Notes under the pieces: model-generated | What the model saw: only the letters and a program-made list of their open reading frames with translations | What the model was told of the DNA's origin: nothing | Database searches by the model: none | Shown: one piece after another, positions 27,423-64,000 of the stretch | Layout: every line of letters starts with the position of its first letter | Numbering within the stretch: position 1 is the first letter of the stretch | Position numbers and translations under genes: made by a program | From: Yuukianura sp. NJ FZ-2021 | Taxonomy: Eukaryota | NCBI GenBank assembly: GCA_046563655.1 | Contig: CM102287.1 | Coordinates: forward strand, 6,882,001 to 6,946,000 | Length of the DNA stretch: 64,000 bases | Reading direction: 5' to 3'

Positions 27423-45660
<18,238 letters not shown>

Positions 45661-51981: not shown

Positions 51982-54900
51982 TTAGAAAACCACGGTCATT
52001 TCCGTTCTGTTTCTGCTCAGTTGATCATCAGCGGTAAGCATCACCTTTTTTTTTTAGAAAAAAATTAAACAAATATTAACAACTTTTTAATTCACTGGAG
52101 AGTTTTTGTAATGAAAAGTGCGCTTACCATGAAAGTAAAGAACCAGGCGGGTGCAGCCAGCCAATGGTACATATCAAGTGCATCGTAAATCCCGACGATA
52201 CAAGGTGTGAACTTTTCCTGCAAAAATATTGCAGGCAACTCCCACGCATCCAACGATGTTACTAAAGCAGTCAGCGACAAAACCCAGAAAAGCACAGCAA
52301 GAACCAAGTAGATCAGTGGCTGCCACGAAGTGAACTTTGAAAACTCGTGGTGACAACCCTGGACAATCATGCACAACATTCTTAGCTTTTGTTCTGCCAT
52401 AAACATTACTGTGTGATTCCTAAAAAGTATATTTACCTTATGAATTATAAAGTATGAGATGAAGTCGAGATGAAAGTTGGCTAGTACAAGGATGTACATG
52501 CGCGTAGTGAAATGATTCTCCGTCATGCCCAGCCAAATGAACGTGAGGATTCCGACGTTGAGCAAAAAACGTAACACTGTCCAGAATGTCCTTCGTTTCC
52601 ATTCAGGGTAAAACAGTGGTAGGATATTCCAAGAACAAAAGACGCTTCTGAAGAGCGCTGTTGGTGCGTTGACTAACTTTGTATTGTTTGCAGTTGGTTG
52701 ACACGCTGAAACGCTTCTCGCTCTGCGTTTAGGCGTAGGATCTGCAACAAAGCAGGAAAGTATTTCTAACACTTTTGTTCACTTGAAAATATTCAACATT
52801 TTGTAACATTCTTACCTTCCATTTCAGTTTCTGCTGCAGTATTGGGCGTTGGGTGGACATCCTCCTCCAAGTACCCGGCGGAGTGGAGGATCAATACAGT
52901 AAGCTGAATCCAGAAGCTAAGGAAGACTGAAACGACAATTTGAAAAGTTCTGTCGGTGATCAAATACGCCGCTGTGATCACCCCAATCACCAATCCGGTT
53001 GACAGAAACGTAAAGTTGCTGTTGCATTAAAGAAATTTAAACGTAACTCAACAAATAACAAAAGGGAAAGTTTGTCCAGAGTATACTCACTCGGTGACCA
53101 TACAAGGATGTCTTAGGTTGTAAATCTTAATTTGGCACAGAACGACGATGATGAACATGAAAGTTAGTCCTGGAAAGCAAAAACAGATTTCATTGATTAC
53201 ATGTTGTTTTAAAAAGGAAAAGTTACACCTTCTTCCACTGTTTTTTACCAAAGAAAGTCGTGTCCTTGCTGGGACAAGTGTTGTAAGCCATTTTCATTAT
53301 TCCAACAAACATTAGCGCGAATCCCAGCGTATAGAACGTTCCGAAGTTCTGATACGCTCCGTAGACCGTTCCTGTTAGGTTGACCCGACGGAAGCGACAC
53401 CAACGCCACGGGTTAGCGTCCAAATTTTCTCCGAACATTGCTCCGCCATGAACCTCGCTGACGACCAGTTTCGTGGCACGGACATGAACCAAAACCATGA
53501 AAGTGATTCCGGCTATGACAAACCCAATGCAAGAGTAGACATGGTTGAAGCTCACGAAAATCCATACAGGATAGGAACAAAAGTAGTTAAAGTGGCAAAT
53601 ATCCAGGTCACCAGTCTTGGCAAACTAAAAACAAACAAACTTAAAATTGATTAGTTAGTAAGGGGGTTCGTAAAATGAGTTAAAAATTTGTATTGTCCAT
53701 AAAATAAAAGAAAAAATTACGCCCTGGTGGGGAATCTAATAAAATTAAACAAAATTTTGTATTTTCATAAAATGTAGAAAAAAATTACTCCCCGGCGGGG
53801 AATCGAACCCCGATTTCCCACGTGACAGGCGGAGATACTGACCATTATACTACCGAGGACCCGGTTGGAAGCTCGAGCTCAAATTCTTATACATGACTTA
53901 CACACTTCACAAAATGCGGAAAGAGGAGAGATGAGATAACACAGTGCGTTTAAAAAGCATGTACAAACTCCTCACTTATCTGTTAAACCAAACGTTTTTG
54001 AAATCACAACTTCCTCAAGCACTTAATATATTCAAACTATTTAAATTGATTTCCGCATTTAGTTTACTCGCTAACCTTTTTTAGAACACACATTTTTCGG
54101 TTTCACTCAAGACTCAAGTTAAAATCGTTTCACGTTTGGGAGTGGGAAACGGGAAAGTAAGAAAAAGTTCAGATGTGGGACGTGGAAATTCGAACTTTCA
54201 CTCTGGAAAATCAATAGGCAATGCCAGCAATGAAAATTGAAGCTACATGACGTGACGCCTAGCGAATTCCAGGCTCTGCGATTGGAAGTGAAGCTAAAGA
54301 AATAAATTCAGTCTTACGTTAGTTAGAGTCAGTGAAAGCAGAATGACTGGAAGGCCATAGAAGAACACAATCGTAAGAATTGTCCAAATGTATCTGTACG
54401 AATTGGCTTTCAAGTACTTGTACAATTTCGTTTCAGCAGTGAAACTCTCAACGCGCAGACGCGTCTCACAGTAGTTCACAGGACAAAGTCGATTTATAAA
54501 TGCAGGGGTGAATTCTGGATTATGAGCACTAGGCAAAAATTATAAAGTTGAAAATTCAAAATTCTACTCTCAAATCTCTCAAATTAAAATAGGGTGGACT
54601 GTCATGCGCATTTGCCACATTTACCCGACATATTGATGGTGACAACATGAAAACATCAAGTGGACGAGGAGGATCACTAGAAAGTGGATGAGGATGGGAA
54701 TCCAGAAGGATGGTATAACCACTTGATCTTCGTCTGGTGGCCCCAGAATCTGAAACGAGATCGTTTCAGACTTCGAAGCAACGTTTCTACTAACGTGCGA
54801 ATTCAGGCGTGGATCAGGCAGGAACAAGAGGATGAAGCCTTCCGGATAAGTTTCTTTCTGAAGTTTCAAAATCAAAACACTATATTTGATTAAAACGCAA

Positions 54901-55959
54901 AAAAGAAAGTACTTTTTTGGTGAAAGTGAAACTAACGCGGACGATGAGCGCCGTCCTTTGTGACATTGTGTGCCAGTGTCCACTGTATTGAATATTTGAC
55001 AGTTCATCATTAACAGGGCACTGCAATGCAAAAAAAAATCATCATTTCGGAAAACATAACGGTGCTTTTTTTCTATTTACCCCTGGCTTCTGAATGGAAA
55101 TCACTGTTTTTGAAGCAGTAGTGGAATTTGCAATGATTTTCACAAACGAAACATTTTGAGGAAATCCAAACCGGTAAAATATTGGGGCTGTTGAGGAAAC
55201 ATTATGGGCCACTTTAGGTTCGTCATTCAATCTGCGCACAATTTGTTCAAAAATGTTTAATTTTTGTTTTCATGTCTCGTTTCTGATTGGTGTAAGAAGT
55301 GAATCTTAAATAGTACACAAATAATTATGTATACTTACTTTATGATGTATCCCTTCCTCATGGACAGATTGAAGGAGTAACGGACATCGTCCAGGTTGCA
55401 AGTGGAAACAGTTATGAAAACGGAGGAGGACCATTCTTCCGGTCCAAGGCACAGGTTCCGAGCGCCATTGTATATTGGTCTGAAAAATGGCGGGAAATTT
55501 GAACCGAAAAGTTTATTGTTATTCCGTTGTTTTCTAACTTACAGATTTGTCGCTTCATGACTTTGTGGAAGGGCGATCGTTTGCACTTCATTTCTTTGCC
55601 TGATGATAAAATATACGGGACACCTCTCGTTGGAATTCAGAGCCGCGTTGAATTCAACACGAATGTAGGAGTCCTGAAAACGTGTACAAAAATTAAATAT
55701 TAAGATATGTAACTATTATAGTTTTTTTGGTAACTGTACTAACGTTTGTGTGTAACTGAGGAATATTAAACCCGTAAACGTTTTGGAGGCTGATGTTAAC
55801 TTTGCCCTCAATCCAAGTATTTGTTTGGCTTTCTATAAATTCCAGTTCCAAGGTCACTCCATCTTGAACTTGAGTCAACACAATAAGGGAAACTAACGCA
55901 ACCACACCAATCCCCTGCGCCAAAAGTGGCGTTGACAATTTTGACACTGTGCGTAACAT
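51982..55959 (-). CDS. SID-1 transmembrane family protein (divergent)
   Basis: Signal peptide and N-glycosylation sequons in the ectodomain; YIWTILTIVFFYGLPVI; FNHVYSCIGFV; YGAYQNFGTFYTLGFALM; AYNTCP; IYNLRHP; YFIIHK; C-terminal MLTADDQL..VVF*. Confidence 0.85.
53788..53859 (-). tRNA. tRNA-Asp(GTC) in an intron of the SID-1-like gene
   Basis: TCCTCGGTAGTATAATGGTCAGTATCTCCGCCTGTCACGTGGGAAATCGGGGTTCGATTCCCCGCCGGGGAG, 72 nt, with A and B boxes and a downstream oligo-T terminator. Confidence 0.93.
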
Positions 55960-56829: not shown

Positions 56830-58538
56830 ATGACAAGAGGCGGATTCGACTGTCCAATTTGCCTTGACTTTTATTCTGGTAAGATTAAACTTATGATTGA
56901 TCCATCAAACTAAGATTAAAGATCAATATTTGATGATATTGAGAAGATGTGTTTACTAAAGTGTTCCAAATTTTTTCGAACTAAATTCAAACGTTAATTT
57001 TTTTTAATTGTCGATTGCAGAAGAACCGGACGAGGATTACTTCGTGTCTACGAATTGTTCCAAGAAACCAACTAGCATAAACCCTCTTCAAGCCCAAATC
57101 AGTCCAGATTCTGCAGGTCACGTCTTCCATTACAAATGTCTCAACAGAAGCGTACGACTGCGGGAAGGAGGAGCTTTCAACTGTCCAATTTGTCGCCATC
57201 GTAATCACTTCGTTACACTACGAAAACTGAACAACATTGACGTTCAACCCAAGCCGGATGTGAACATATTGTGAGTTTAGTTCAGATGGACTTAATAAGT
57301 GTTAGGATATTTTCTTCATGCTGATTATATTAAACGCTACAGTGACTACGAATTCAAAATTGTCGTACTTGGAAAATTTAAAGCCGGAAAGAGCTCTATT
57401 GTCAAGAGATTTGCAGTAAGATAGTTTTATAAATTGAGACTAACTTTACAAATTGCGATGTACTAATTTTCACTTTCTATGTTAAACTTTAGCGAAACGT
57501 CTTCTCTGAAGAATATGAAATTACAATCGACTGTGATTATGTAAGAACATATTGACTTTTACTTTTGTTAAATATTCGCGGTTTTTCATTGGAAGTGCTT
57601 TAAAAGCGGTTGTTTACATGGATGCGCAATTGGTGCTAATTGAAGCTTTGCTTTAAACGCGGGGAAGCAAGAGTACGTTGCTGGTGAATTAAAACTGATC
57701 TTGAATGAGGAATAGAGTGGACCAAGCCTACTAAAATTAAACTTGACGTTGCAATATTTCCGTACGAAATTCGCAAGTTATGAAATAAGTTGTTTGTTTT
57801 CAGTTTGCCAAGTCTGTCCAAATAGGAGACAAACGGATAAAGCTGAATTTGGTAAGATTCAAATTTAGTAAAATTCAAAAAACAGCAAAAATTCTGTAAT
57901 TTTTAATTTTTAAATTGTTGCTTTCTGTAGTGGGACACTGCAGGTAGGCGTTGCGAATTTGAATTCGCAGTATTTTCAAAACTTACCAAAAACCTTAATT
58001 TAGATGTACAACTTTTTTTGTATTCTGAGAAGGGCAGGAACAGTACCGAAGCGTAGTTACCACTTATGTACGCAATGCATTCGGAATGATATTCGTGTAT
58101 GATATAAGTGATATGTCGACGTTTCGTGCACTTGAAGACTGGATTTTATTTGCCAACGATAATGGTCCGAAGGAAACCAAACGAATTATCGTAGGGAACA
58201 AATCGGATTTGGAAGAACATCGAGAGGTTTCGACTGCAGAGGCGGAGGTAAGAGAACATTTTGAATTCGAATTACAATTGCAAAAAAAAAAGTAATAATA
58301 GTAATGTTTTTGTTTTGTTTTGTAGGATTTTGCAAGGACCGTTGGATATCCATTTCTTGAGTGTTCAGCCAAGGAAGCCACAAATATTTCAACGATATTC
58401 CGAACACTCACGGCGGAAATGCTTGACGAACCAAGAATTCTGAATGCAGCAGACAAATTGTACAACTCGATGAGACTAGAAGAAGAGTTTAAAAAGTTGC
58501 CATTCACGGACAAAATAAAAATGACTTGCTGTCCTTAA
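56830..58538 (+). CDS. RING-H2-like finger fused to a Rab-family GTPase
   Basis: CPIC..AGHVFHYKC..CPIC spliced in frame (TT|gtgag..ctacag|T) to FKIVVLGKFKAGKS, WDTAGQEQYRS, VGNKSD, ECSAK and C-terminal TCCP*. Confidence 0.85.
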
Positions 58539-58849
58539 GTCATGTAGATTTTATGAAACCTTATACTTAAGTAGTAACTCTATAAAAATGCTTGATCTGC
58601 TCAGTTCTACGTGCGAATATTAAAAGCATAAACCAATATTTCAGCCACCTCCGTTGTTGTAAGTTGAATCATGGTTTGCAAGAACAAACCGACAACTTTG
58701 TGGCTTTCTTCTTTATCCTGATTTTAAATAAGGATAAAATATAAAATTTTAAATCAGTGATTTACTCAAAGTCTATTTGGCTACTTTTTCCTGCAGTCTC
58801 ATTTACTTTTCATTCCAATTTTTCACAATTTTTGTGCTCTGAAATCGAA

Positions 58850-60897
58850 ATGAACACGGTAAAACAACTTCCTTTTACTAAAGAAAAGTTAGAATTGAAT
58901 ATTTAAAAATATTGAAAAATTTGTTTCAGTGCGTCGAAGATTGGGGAAGCTGCAACCCATTCGATCTCGTGAGGAAGTGCTGTTCTGGTCAATGCAGCAG
59001 TCCGACCATAAGAGGAGCCCCGTCCGGAAACTGCATACCAGGCGACACTCCAAAACCAACCACACCAATTCCAAAAGTACGTTCTGTTGTTTTCCATTAT
59101 TTTAAAAATGAAATTTCAGTCTAAAATGTTTATTTTATTAAACGTTTTTTCCTTGTTAGGATTGTATCGAAAATGGCGAAGTATGTAAAAGCGATGGATC
59201 GATGGGATATTGTTGTTCCGACTTTTGTTTGCAACAACGAACGTCCGAAACTGGATTTTGCAGGGATCTCAATGCACCGACTGTCACAACGAGCACAATT
59301 AAACCACCTACCGATCGTGTCGTGGTACCAAGCAGGCCAATCCCGAATGGCACGAGCACTTCCAAACCAACGCCTTATGATGGAGGAAGCAATGTTGGAT
59401 TGGTCGTTGGCCTAACTTTTGTGGCCATCGTTATTGTCGGACTCCTCGTCGCTGTTTTGTTCTTGCTTCTCAAAATGAGAAGAACAATGATGACAAAAGC
59501 AGACGTGTATCGCTTTCTGCGTGGTGACCCTGGACAGGGTGGTCGTGACCTTCCAGTACACGAGAAAGTGGACAACCTGCCCTACGACGCATCATACGAA
59601 ATACTACCATCGCGATTCACAATTGGTTAGTGATGCCAGCAAATCAAACATCAGCATATTTTAACAACTTAGGAAAGGAGTGAAGGATTTTCTTTGTTTT
59701 CAGACAATCACATCCTGGGAAGCGGACAGTTTGGAGTGGTGAAGCGAGGAAGTATTAGACTACTGCCCAATAGTGATGCACTGCCAGTAGCAGTGAAAAC
59801 GACGGCAGAGGGCGTGGAGCTTCGATATTTCAAAGCTCTTTTGTCAGAACTCAAACTTATGATCTACATAGGTAGTCACGAAAATGTCGTCACTCTGCTT
59901 GGAGCTAACACAACAGACATGAAAATGGGTGAAAATAGTTTTTGAAAAATATTTGATGAAATACTTTCAAAAAAAATTTTACAACGTTACGTGGAATTTG
60001 ATTTTAGGACGAGCCTATTTGTTCCTAGAATTTTGTAAACTTGGAAGCCTCGAAAGCTTTCTCCGCAAGAACAAACACAGCTTCACAGCAGTCGGTGAAA
60101 GTTCAAGGTACCCAAAAATTTTTGTGCGAAAATTTTTAAAACGTGAGAAAAAAAATTAAGAATTAAATTTTCACACACTTTTTATCCATATGTAAGACCG
60201 TACGCCAACGATCCTAAGTACCTAACAGTCGAAAGCTCTGAACATCCTTTGACGACCTTCGACCTCTATCACTGGTCTACCCAGATTGCACAAGGATTGG
60301 AGTTCTTGAGTACCAAGAAGGTTCGGGAAGTGAAAAGAATTTCAAAATTTGTGCCCAGTAATCAAAATTTCATTTTAGGTCGTTCATGGAGATTTGGCTA
60401 CAAGAAATATTCTACTTGCAAGTCGCTCGCTGGCTAAAATTAGTGACTTTGGCCTATCTCGCAGGGTCTACGACTATACAAACTATGTCAAGAAACACCA
60501 AGTCAGAAAAACCTTAATTTCAAATTACTCAATCCTAAAATTTTTAAAAGATTCAGTTACTTCTTAAATATTTTGAATTTAGGAACCACTTCCATGGAAG
60601 TGGATGGCTATAGAGTCACTGCAGGAGTTGACTTTCTCTACACAGTCTGACATATGGGGTTACGGTGTGACCATTTGGGAAATTTTTTCACTTGGAAGTA
60701 CTCCGTACCCAGGGCTCTCTTGGTCATCTAACTTTGTTCAAGAGGTCGTCAAGGGCCTCAGACTGCCACTTCCTCCGCATGGAACTCAAAAGCTGTACGA
60801 GCTTCTACTGGAATGTTGGAATTTAAATCCAGCACTGCGCCCGCGCCCTGAAAATATCCTAACAACCTTGGCATCGATTAACTCCACTCCTTCGTAG
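58850..60897 (+). CDS. Receptor tyrosine kinase (PDGFR/VEGFR-like kinase) with two knottin-like extracellular modules
   Basis: TM helix [27 protein letters not shown] juxtamembrane; [38 protein letters not shown]. 5' end and signal peptide not resolved. Confidence 0.88.
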
Positions 60898-62088: not shown

Positions 62089-64000
62089 CTACCTCTCGTG
62101 GAAAATGAGTTCATGTGGCTTTGGGCTAACGACAACGGTAGGAATGGGAGTCAAACTAGGCGGCGGACGTCCTGGGTTTGGTGTGACACGAAAATTTTGA
62201 AAAATACTAAAAATTTCAGAAAAACTGTTAAATTTCAAGCCACGACTTTTCATAATTTTGGTAACAAACAAATACGTGTAGTGATACCTGGTGATAAAAA
62301 GAAAGAGTTCCTCTTTTGCTAATTTCTCGCCTAGAATTCGAACGACAAAACATTTAGGAAATGATAGAAAAACTCTTCACTTTTTTGATTACCGAGGCAA
62401 ATTCGTTTTCCAAATGAAAATGGAATAAATGATTGGTGTGACTTGTTCGCAGTTCCGTCGGGGTTTAGGAATCTCTCCGGCCGGAAAACTCCCGGGTCGC
62501 CCCAAACTTCGGGATCGTGCATTGCAGCATAGAGATTTGGCGTGAAGACTGTATCCTTTGGGATACGATACCCACCAATGACAACGTCTGTTGTTGTGCT
62601 GTGCCAAATTGAAAGAGGAGCAGGGGCGACATATCGAAAAGCCTCCATCGTGACACACTCCGTATAAGGCATGTCGGGTCGGTCGCGTAGTTCTGGCGTT
62701 CTTTCGAAGCCAACCACCCTCGAAATTTCGTCAAACATTTTCTCTTGAATATCCGGAAATACAGCCATCAAGAGCAGAACCCATGTCAGCATTGTTGATG
62801 TCTAAACATATCACATCACACGTTAACAGTAACAAAAGTTAAAATGTAACCAAAACTAACCGTTTCTGATCCTGCGAGGAACAAATCTTCCAAAGATTTT
62901 ATAACTGACGCTTCTGAGAGTTTTAAAGTTTTTGTTAGTTTTCAATTTCTGTAAATGAAAAGTTTGACCTTTGACCTTTACCTCCTTCATCCTTGTAGAA
63001 AGAGGAACCTGGGTCGGTCGTTCGCGCCACTTCTTCGATCAAGGCGTCCATTAAATCCCGTGGTTCTCCTGCAACAAACGTTGCCTTGTGATTCCTGTAC
63101 TCTTCGGCGACGAAAGCATTCACAGCATTGTGTCCAGAAATAAAAGAGTTGTACCCAGTCCACTCCGAAAACCATTCGCACAACTTTGGAAAGACGAATA
63201 TAACGGGGGAGGAAATTTCACGTAAACTATTACATAATGGATAAATTGTAAAATTGAATTTTGAATAACTTGGAAGTAGTAGTTAGTACTAAAGTAAACT
63301 GTTTTACTTGGTCACTAGTTTGCAGGCTTCGGCAAGAGTCGGGTCGTCCTGTGATGATCGACTTCCGGCGCAAATTTTCCAGAGAGCTTTTACTATCGCT
63401 GTACAAAGCAAAACCAAAGTCCTTTTTCCGTGAAAAATTACTTAACAATACAAAAAACTGATTAACCAAAAAACCTCGGACAAAATAATACGGCTGAAAT
63501 GGCACAAAGCACAAAGTTTTCATCATTGAAAATTCAAATATAATTTAAATAAAATAAGTAAAATACTTTAAATTTAAAAAATGTGAGCCATGAGATCACT
63601 CCATGACATGACTGAAACTTTAGTTTAAAAAAAATAAAAGTGGGTTTTACCAGTGCTAAAAAGCCCATCCGTCACAACGGGGACTCCAGTGCGTACGCGT
63701 ATTCTTTTTAAGAATTCTTGGATTTCTTCTTGGATGATCCCCTCCATAGAACTTTTTCCAAAACCAAAATCTCCCAAACTTTTTAGTACAAATCGACGTT
63801 GTTCGTTCCAGTGCCGTAACTCAGCGAAAAGAATTCCACGACAATATTTTGCTCCCGGTTCAGTTCTTTCCAAAAATACAGGGAATTTTGGTCTTCCCGA
63901 CAATACTGGATCGTTGAGGCATTGCTTAAGCAGTTTGAGGTCATTGACCACAATAGAACGGACTGATCCATAGTCGACGCTAAAAATGCCGCCATACTTT
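62089..64000 (-). CDS. Cytochrome P450, CYP2 clan (5' end outside the window)
   Basis: WNEQRRF, DFGFGK, AGSETT, EAFR (ExxR), PERF and heme motif FSFGKRICLGE; last exon ends ELIFHER*. Confidence 0.95.

Follow-up and report, generated by a model that had tools for sequence, protein, structure and literature searches.

A springtail PVR-type receptor tyrosine kinase with tandem Alo-type knottins in place of immunoglobulin domains: a putative sensor of microbial ligands

Within a 64,000-nucleotide stretch of the Yuukianura sp. NJ FZ-2021 genome (assembly GCA_046563655.1, contig CM102287.1, positions 6,882,001 to 6,946,000 of the forward strand; hereafter the window), we characterized a gene on the + strand that, judged by its reading frame and splice sites, is intact and encodes a PVR-derived tyrosine kinase that crosses the membrane once and bears, in place of an immunoglobulin (Ig) ectodomain, tandem Alo-type knottins on a Ser/Thr/Pro stalk. 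The outer sensing tip of the receptor is likely an antimicrobial peptide put to a new use. Our preferred reading of its function, to which we assign a probability of roughly 0.45, is that of a putative sensor clustered by a microbe-associated ligand, most plausibly a fungal one.

The open model comprises 502 codons in eight exons, with the frame closing at 60897; exons 2–8 are joined by GT-AG introns of 58–89 nucleotides (nt) into a single open frame. The predicted first coding exon (58850..58858, +), encoding Met-Asn-Thr without a signal peptide and followed by a phase-0 donor, rests on the starts of homologues and on the choice of the sole ATG within 58539–58929 with a clear phase-0 GT donor downstream. 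Exon 2 (58930..59076, +), symmetric in the splice model (phase 0-0), holds knottin 1 and a Pro/Thr linker. A phase-0 GT-AG intron separates it from exon 3 (59160..59625, +), which also begins in phase 0 and carries knottin 2, a Ser/Thr/Pro stalk with one N-glycosylation sequon, the membrane helix and a juxtamembrane segment with an LPYD motif. Exons 4–8 (59704-59928, 60008-60107, 60197-60320, 60379-60501 and 60583-60897, all +) encode the PVR-type tyrosine kinase, with a short insert and a very short tail. An earlier sequence-only reading of this DNA had placed two cysteine modules on separate exons, and both are present as quoted there, exon 2 starting one base earlier than given, at 58930. 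Its description of a stalk, a transmembrane helix and an intact PVR-like kinase agrees with our model (51% Ser/Thr/Pro in the stalk, a helix of 26 residues, all kinase motifs found), and the ectodomain of 130 residues is indeed free of Ig domains, as Pfam gives no Ig match in exon 2 or exon 3.

Knottin 2 (59163..59261, +), with the spacing C-x6-C-x8-CC-x3-C-x10-C and a net charge of -3, matches the Pfam family Antifungal_pept (PF11410, Alo-3/PAFP-S type) at 51.4 bits against a cut-off of 22. Its best sequence match in the PDB is beetle Alo-3 (1q3j, E 2.2e-6), and PAFP-S (1dkc, E 2.1e-4) is also matched, which bears out the earlier suggestion that this module resembles the Alo/Mj-AMP knottins. 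A three-strand knottin fold is predicted for it, the single-sequence model having a pLDDT of 68.3 and a best fold match of Z 3.7 (root-mean-square deviation (rmsd) 1.9, 35 aligned residues). Knottin 1 (58930..59034, +; C-x6-C-x8-CC-x3-C-x12-C) is divergent, with six cysteines and a net charge of 0; by sequence it matched neither a Pfam family above cut-off nor any relevant PDB chain. Its model reached a pLDDT of 78.8 and a best fold match of Z 4.2 (rmsd 1.7, 37 aligned residues), values biased by the 8-row knottin alignment on which it was built. Fold matches (42 and 50 rows) were mostly cystine-knot peptides for both modules, with no Z reaching 5. The claim that module 1 is also antifungal-peptide-like therefore stood in part: its spacing and predicted knottin fold agree with it, and the lack of a Pfam match and a profile score that shuffled sequences also reach do not. 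Compared with the Alo motif of a springtail antimicrobial peptide (AMP) survey, C-x6-C-x7-9-CC-x3-C-x10-C (PMC10051947), module 2 fits exactly and module 1 has a last loop of 12 residues. With a loose knottin pattern, the window gave 13 matches in its six frames, two in this gene and 11 in one tandem repeat; 100 base-shuffled windows gave one. The repeat, at 33482-33923, gives its 11 spurious cysteine-pattern matches in three frames.

The kinase looks active, its motifs being intact at the sequence level. All ten motifs sought were found, including GxGxFG, VAVK, the helix-C Glu, the activation-loop tyrosines (three) and PWKW, and the three kinase exons tested matched PF07714. The kinase insert is roughly 30 residues long and contains a Tyr-x-Asn (60201..60209, +), which we take to be a Grb2/Drk docking consensus on the basis of SH2 specificity and thus a candidate docking site. 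This motif is aligned in 4/4 rows, namely the window protein, a metagenome homologue (L058) and both Orchesella proteins described below, and was not seen in the kinase insert of F. candida. The catalytic loop HGDLATRN (60385..60408, +) is of the non-RD type and bears the PVR signature. In the available text of PMC11024359, an HGDLA loop marks pancrustacean PVRs, and the decapod PVR2 consensus given there resembles the window kinase, including its KISDFGLSR...PxKW stretch.

We searched exon 3 against 1.84 billion protein representatives and obtained 14 proteins, of which four cover the helix region strongly, five are secreted knottins and five are weak low-complexity or helix matches; no longer homologues were found by exon 3 among 1186 candidates. 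Among the 14, the Orchesella dallaii protein CAL8095589.1 has four PF11410 repeats followed by a helix and a kinase. Its ectodomain as a query recovered O. cincta ODM96773.1, with five repeats, and gave no usable match in the protein atlas; a query with its kinase gave 56 proteins at E <= 1e-60, among them Folsomia candida XP_035702786.1. That protein and the isoform XP_035702785.1 (= OXA63171.1) carry one N-terminal knottin-spaced module, recognised by cysteine spacing only, unscored by Pfam and with a seventh cysteine. A metagenome contig, the only locus to emerge from the metagenome scan (L058), contains the same receptor gene with one intact knottin behind the same RING-Rab gene that precedes it in the window. 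The window kinase shares 68% identity and its intron phases with that of L058, and about 50% identity with those of Orchesella. Knottin 2 and the L058 knottin share 19 of 33 residues, 12 of those 19 being encoded by a different codon. All named homologues are from Collembola, and the knottin copy number across the architecture ranges from 1 to 5. In Beauveria species, two cationic PF11410 repeats occur in one secreted protein (cluster P0005).

Upstream of its intact knottin, L058 carries an apparent decayed first knottin exon (L058:4784-4930), which shares the frame of the downstream donor. The C-x6-C-x8-C of this exon is interrupted and then runs into stop codons; the pattern, chosen after the fact, recurred in 7 of 5000 shuffles. 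The L058 protein would start at a Met in the linker of this decayed exon. Such decay suits a highly improbable explanation, namely that the knottin exons are an artefact or neutral remnant, coming from a separate or dead gene or never being translocated and having no function. It is opposed by the single exon that holds knottin 2, the helix and the juxtamembrane segment, and by the retention of the fusion in five genomes with all six cysteines and synonymous divergence. Knottins encoded by a separate gene were ruled out as a candidate, since knottin 2 shares its exon with the helix.

In the trees, the window and L058 proteins are sisters with full support. A 74-row quick tree weakly joined them with the Orchesella pair (SH-aLRT 86), and a careful tree of 38 of those rows placed six unnamed long-ectodomain kinases between them and the Orchesella pair (86/71) and left F. 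candida unplaced. An approximately unbiased (AU) test did not reject one clade of all five (p-AU 0.364), so a single origin of the knottin-headed receptors is neither shown nor rejected by these sequences. The six unnamed kinases (P0062, P0066, P0069, P0071, P0074 and P0059) form a clade weakly placed beside the window gene; five of them have long ectodomains without a Pfam match, and four, read by eye, seem to hold two GH17-like repeats. In a tree that held no characterised PVR or FGFR, the window kinase nests among Ig-headed springtail kinases with automatic VEGFR names.

The single transmembrane helix (26 residues, 59394..59471, +) is followed by Lys-Met-Arg-Arg and is predicted from its flanking charges to be an N-out/C-in signal anchor, the charge over 15 residues being 0 on the N side and +4 on the C side. 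The same measure favours N-out in four of the five receptors and is even in O. cincta; in all five models the helix is preceded by at least one sequon and followed at once by basic residues. A reversed topology, with the kinase in the lumen, was ruled out by the flanking charges together with the conserved kinase. A two-copy prediction of the helix region scored 0.05, against a mark of 0.32, and carries no weight either way.

The sequence-only reading had assumed a missing signal-peptide exon. That assumption is probably mistaken: in none of the five gene models does the protein begin with a signal peptide. Such an exon is therefore unlikely to exist, and an absence that recurs across five models does not refute a receptor. 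A hydrophobic N-terminus is absent in all five, with a best 8-residue hydropathy of 0.5–1.2 versus 3.9 in a secreted knottin of the same genome (L005). Each of the four database models begins Met-x(1-5)-Cys; they come from three named species, two with annotated isoforms. From the stop codon of the upstream gene to the intact knottin exon there are 391 nt in the window and 461 nt in L058, and no signal-like exon was found from the 49 (window) and 51 (L058) ATGs scanned back to the divergent promoter, although the same scan did recover the signal of the L005 gene. It is unlikely, then, that a real signal-peptide exon or a non-AUG start is lacking from the gene models and that the protein is an ordinary type I receptor, an alternative that would alter the topology and leave the ligand question as it is. 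A start at the GTG at 58757, which shares the frame of the exon-1 donor, would extend the protein by a mildly hydrophobic segment (8-residue mean 2.3), and many Ig-headed relatives have signal peptides; the GTG frame, however, has no counterpart in L058, and the short gaps, the ATG scans and the uniform Met-x(1-5)-Cys starts all speak against such an exon. A receptor without a signal peptide, inserted through a type III signal anchor, is likely and is the simplest reading of these models. TACI, BAFF-R and XEDAR are, besides BCMA, type III receptors of the TNF family. Knottins cannot form disulfides in the cytosol, and this, together with the low-complexity linkers, suggests that the ectodomain should stay threadable. 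BCMA offers a precedent as a signal-less type III receptor with a cysteine-rich N-terminal ectodomain of 54 residues (PMC13420781).

By sequence comparison, the window kinase is part of a springtail PVR expansion with swapped heads. Its last kinase exon has 41 matches in the genome at E <= 1e-10, and the upstream DNA of 21 of the 40 others was examined. The heads of these 21 paralogues include Ig, GH17-like (two, below cut-off), ANF-receptor and LDLa behind a trypsin-like frame, the last read by eye and without a Pfam match; a profile search of these 21 of 40 found no second knottin-headed kinase. Among 54 database relatives, the heads include c-type lysozyme (2), destabilase lysozyme (1), LDLa (2), trypsin (1), PAN (1) and crystallin (1). 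The lysozyme-headed proteins, P0036 and P0046 (Orchesella) and P0068 (Allacma), are PVR-type kinases, and their ectodomains match c-type lysozyme or destabilase above the Pfam cut-off.

Exon phases support the earlier proposal of exon shuffling, in which knottins were captured as phase-0 exon modules: the stand-alone knottin exons L005 and L062 of this genome both follow a phase-0 acceptor, as the receptor knottins do. The phases fit a capture without the signal exon, followed by duplication or decay. The phase-0 knottin exon of a secreted Alo-type gene would have been captured ahead of a membrane-helix exon, with the signal exon left behind, and the symmetric knottin exon would later have been duplicated, or have decayed as in L058, to give 1–5 copies. 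L005 (L005:1352-1623, G000:C4) is a secreted knottin gene with a signal exon, a phase-0 intron and a PF11410 exon scoring 24.1 bits. At L062 (L062:1-1630, G000:C1), the DNA upstream of the stand-alone knottin exon looks by eye like a reverse-transcriptase fragment of the long interspersed nuclear element (LINE) type. A third locus (L090:2026-2115, G000:C2) has a frame with knottin spacing and, 325 nt upstream of it, a signal-like ATG. A genome-wide DNA-pattern census of knottins was too loose to provide a count, with 911 matches versus 513 in the reversed control, and yielded L062 as its only lead.

In the reading that we prefer, the helix would serve as a signal anchor of N-out orientation. 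The knottins, still reduced and unfolded, would be threaded into the endoplasmic reticulum (ER) together with their disordered linkers and oxidised there. A multivalent ligand would then gather receptors, the activation-loop tyrosines would be trans-phosphorylated after clustering, and the YxN of the insert would recruit Grb2/Drk and engage Ras-MAPK signaling. Ligand-driven clustering, trans-phosphorylation and a Ras-MAPK output are to be expected from an active-looking kinase with loop tyrosines and an insert YxN. In favor of a microbial ligand we counted the PF11410 family of the module, its variable copy number and the sister lysozyme and glucanase-like heads, as well as the precedents of plant CRKs (PMC6368629) and C. 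elegans OLD-1 (PMC10523662).

Several observations weigh against this reading. The receptor knottins have lost positive charge, which speaks against their binding as killing peptides do: all 13 receptor knottin cores have a net charge of 0 to -3 and five of the eight stand-alone cores are positive (p 0.006, the repeats not being independent), a contrast that weakens to p 0.07 without the two cationic Beauveria repeats, and the two stand-alone knottins of this genome carry charges of -3 and 0. The antimicrobial plant relatives are described, in the available texts, as cationic and non-chitin-binding (PMC5743680, PMC4695807, PMC9865768). A profile made from 17 related knottins gives knottin 1 a score of 12.1 bits, which 28 of 500 shuffles with fixed cysteines reach. 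The non-RD loop, which we had considered as evidence of pattern recognition, was dropped as the PVR default across the whole family: it occurs in 21 of 21 paralogues here and in 51 of the 52 database proteins with a readable loop, and because it is family-wide and found in ordinary PVRs, it is no immune sign. Most heads of the family (Ig, LDLa, trypsin-like, PAN, crystallin and ANF-receptor) have no microbial link. Finally, type III insertion has size limits, and the signal-less Orchesella ectodomains, at 209 and 246 residues, are long for it.

Without the positive charge of killing peptides, the receptor knottins more likely bind than kill, and what they bind need not be microbial. The knottins could be a generic scaffold for an endogenous ligand, such as a growth, wound or matrix signal, with the kinase keeping a PVR-like role in migration, survival or repair. 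We regard this as rather doubtful, even if it would account for the acidic or neutral charge of the receptor knottins, the PVR motifs kept in the kinase and the many sister heads that are non-immune domains; the fold, moreover, is common to agouti-related protein, evasin-3, amylase and protease inhibitors and IGF-binding modules. By sequence, however, the module belongs specifically to the antifungal-peptide family, and one to five copies with fast-diverging heads would suit the recognition of foreign surfaces better than that of a fixed host ligand.

The charge bears equally on the idea of a membrane-tethered antimicrobial precursor, whose knottins would be shed from the stalk as free peptides while the kinase reports the cleavage or signals independently of ligand. 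The long unstructured Ser/Thr/Pro stalk and linkers and the family identity with antifungal peptides would allow for it, but the knottin cores are not cationic, and the published in-silico score of OcinAlo3, an O. cincta peptide of the AMP survey, is "Not Active" against all listed microbes (PMC10051947), which together make it very unlikely. Two full-length secreted Alo peptides were likewise scored inactive against fungi in the same prediction (PMC10051947).

Secreted knottin genes coexist with the receptor in this genome, and this raises a decoy or guard role, in which the knottins on the membrane would stand in for the secreted Alo peptides of the animal and register microbial proteins that attach to or cut them, or else would themselves bind free Alo-type peptides by knottin-knottin pairing. 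Native dimers are reported for Mj-AMP1/2 (PMC4695807), insect-pathogenic Beauveria has genes for PF11410 peptides of two domains whose cores are cationic, and an acidic receptor knottin might complement a cationic partner. The genome's own secreted knottins are nevertheless distant (25% identity to knottin 1) and not cationic, and we consider such a role distinctly unlikely.

Beyond the putative microbial sensor encoded here, we tentatively entertain a wider possibility, namely that springtails built a plant-style array of pattern-recognition kinases from PVR with effector heads (lysozymes, glucanase-like domains, an antifungal peptide), of which the window gene would be a signal-less member with a tethered antimicrobial peptide as its ligand-binding module.

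The gene directly upstream in the window (56830-58538, +) is an eight-exon RING-finger-Rab GTPase fusion of 302 aa with an open frame and a CC prenylation-type end; the same fusion lies upstream in L058. Exons of further flanking genes lie upstream at 54294-55560 (-), also present in L058, and downstream at 62331-63999 (-). From their motifs, we tentatively take these to be, respectively, a SID-1-type membrane protein and a cytochrome P450.

The springtail AMP survey lists 12 Alo peptides, eight of them without both ends (PMC10051947). OcinAlo1, OcinAlo2 and OcinAlo3 of that list are, letter for letter, repeats 1, 2 and 4 of ODM96773.1; the words "kinase" and "transmembrane" are absent from its main text. 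Since all three published O. cincta "Alo genes" are repeats of one receptor, the published count needs revising, a correction that holds whatever the receptor's function, and the other five end-less peptides (Sinella, Holacanthella) may also be receptor repeats. In the full-text literature covered, which excludes most subscription journals, we found no description of this receptor or of a head-swapped springtail PVR family. In the main texts of the genome papers, "kinase" occurs once for O. cincta (PMC4987106) and never for F. candida (PMC5490193), and "VEGF" in neither; their supplements may list the family. The parts are known, and the proteins themselves are already present in databases under VEGFR names. 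What appears to be new is how the parts are combined, that a signal peptide is missing, and that the published Alo list is connected with this receptor.

In the literature that we reached, no animal receptor tyrosine kinase is described with an antimicrobial peptide as its ectodomain, and such a design parallels the origin of plant CRKs. The receptor is also a small candidate for how fungus-feeding soil hexapods detect microbes, and if its knottins bind a fungal target, it would be a tool for finding the targets of Alo-type peptides. A signal-less receptor tyrosine kinase with up to ~245 residues outside would, if true, be an unusual case of type III membrane insertion.

Among known systems, the knottins Alo-3 (1q3j), PAFP-S (1dkc) and Mj-AMP share with the window modules the six-cysteine spacing and the PF11410 match (module 2); a knottin fold is also predicted for the modules, at low Z. 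Known PF11410 members are made as a secreted signal plus mature peptide and are mostly cationic (PMC5743680), whereas the window modules are tandem, membrane-tethered, neutral or acidic, without a signal peptide, and run into a stalk, a helix and a kinase. Pancrustacean PVRs have the same HGDLA loop, KISDFGLSR...PxKW stretch and split kinase; the window protein departs from them in having no Ig domains, no signal peptide, a short insert and almost no tail, and the canonical PVF-binding ectodomain is absent.

Plant CRKs resemble the window receptor in that they arose through duplication of a secreted antifungal domain and its fusion with a helix and a kinase, but their DUF26 fold is unrelated and the kinase is a plant receptor-like kinase rather than an animal tyrosine kinase (PMC6368629). 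The window receptor has no Pfam match to DUF26 (PF01657). Ligands of the plant CRKs are said to be still poorly defined. BCMA has the cysteine-rich N-terminal ectodomain without a signal peptide but no kinase, and its ectodomain is shorter than the 64–246 residues of the springtail receptors (PMC13420781). The C. elegans KIN-16 family (OLD-1, FLOR-1) is likewise a lineage-specific expansion of receptor tyrosine kinases, with a shown role in recognising a filamentous pathogen; it is nematode-specific, no knottin head is mentioned in the available text, and the likeness is drawn here as an analogy (PMC10523662). The springtail proteins ODM96773.1 ("VEGFR3"), CAL8095589.1/CAL8095592.1 and XP_035702785.1/XP_035702786.1 ("VEGFR kdr-like") differ from the window receptor in knottin number (5, 4 and 1 in O. 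cincta, O. dallaii and F. candida, respectively) and bear automatic names that ignore the knottins; they share with it the knottin or knottins, the stalk, the helix, the PVR-type kinase and the Met-x(1-5)-Cys start.

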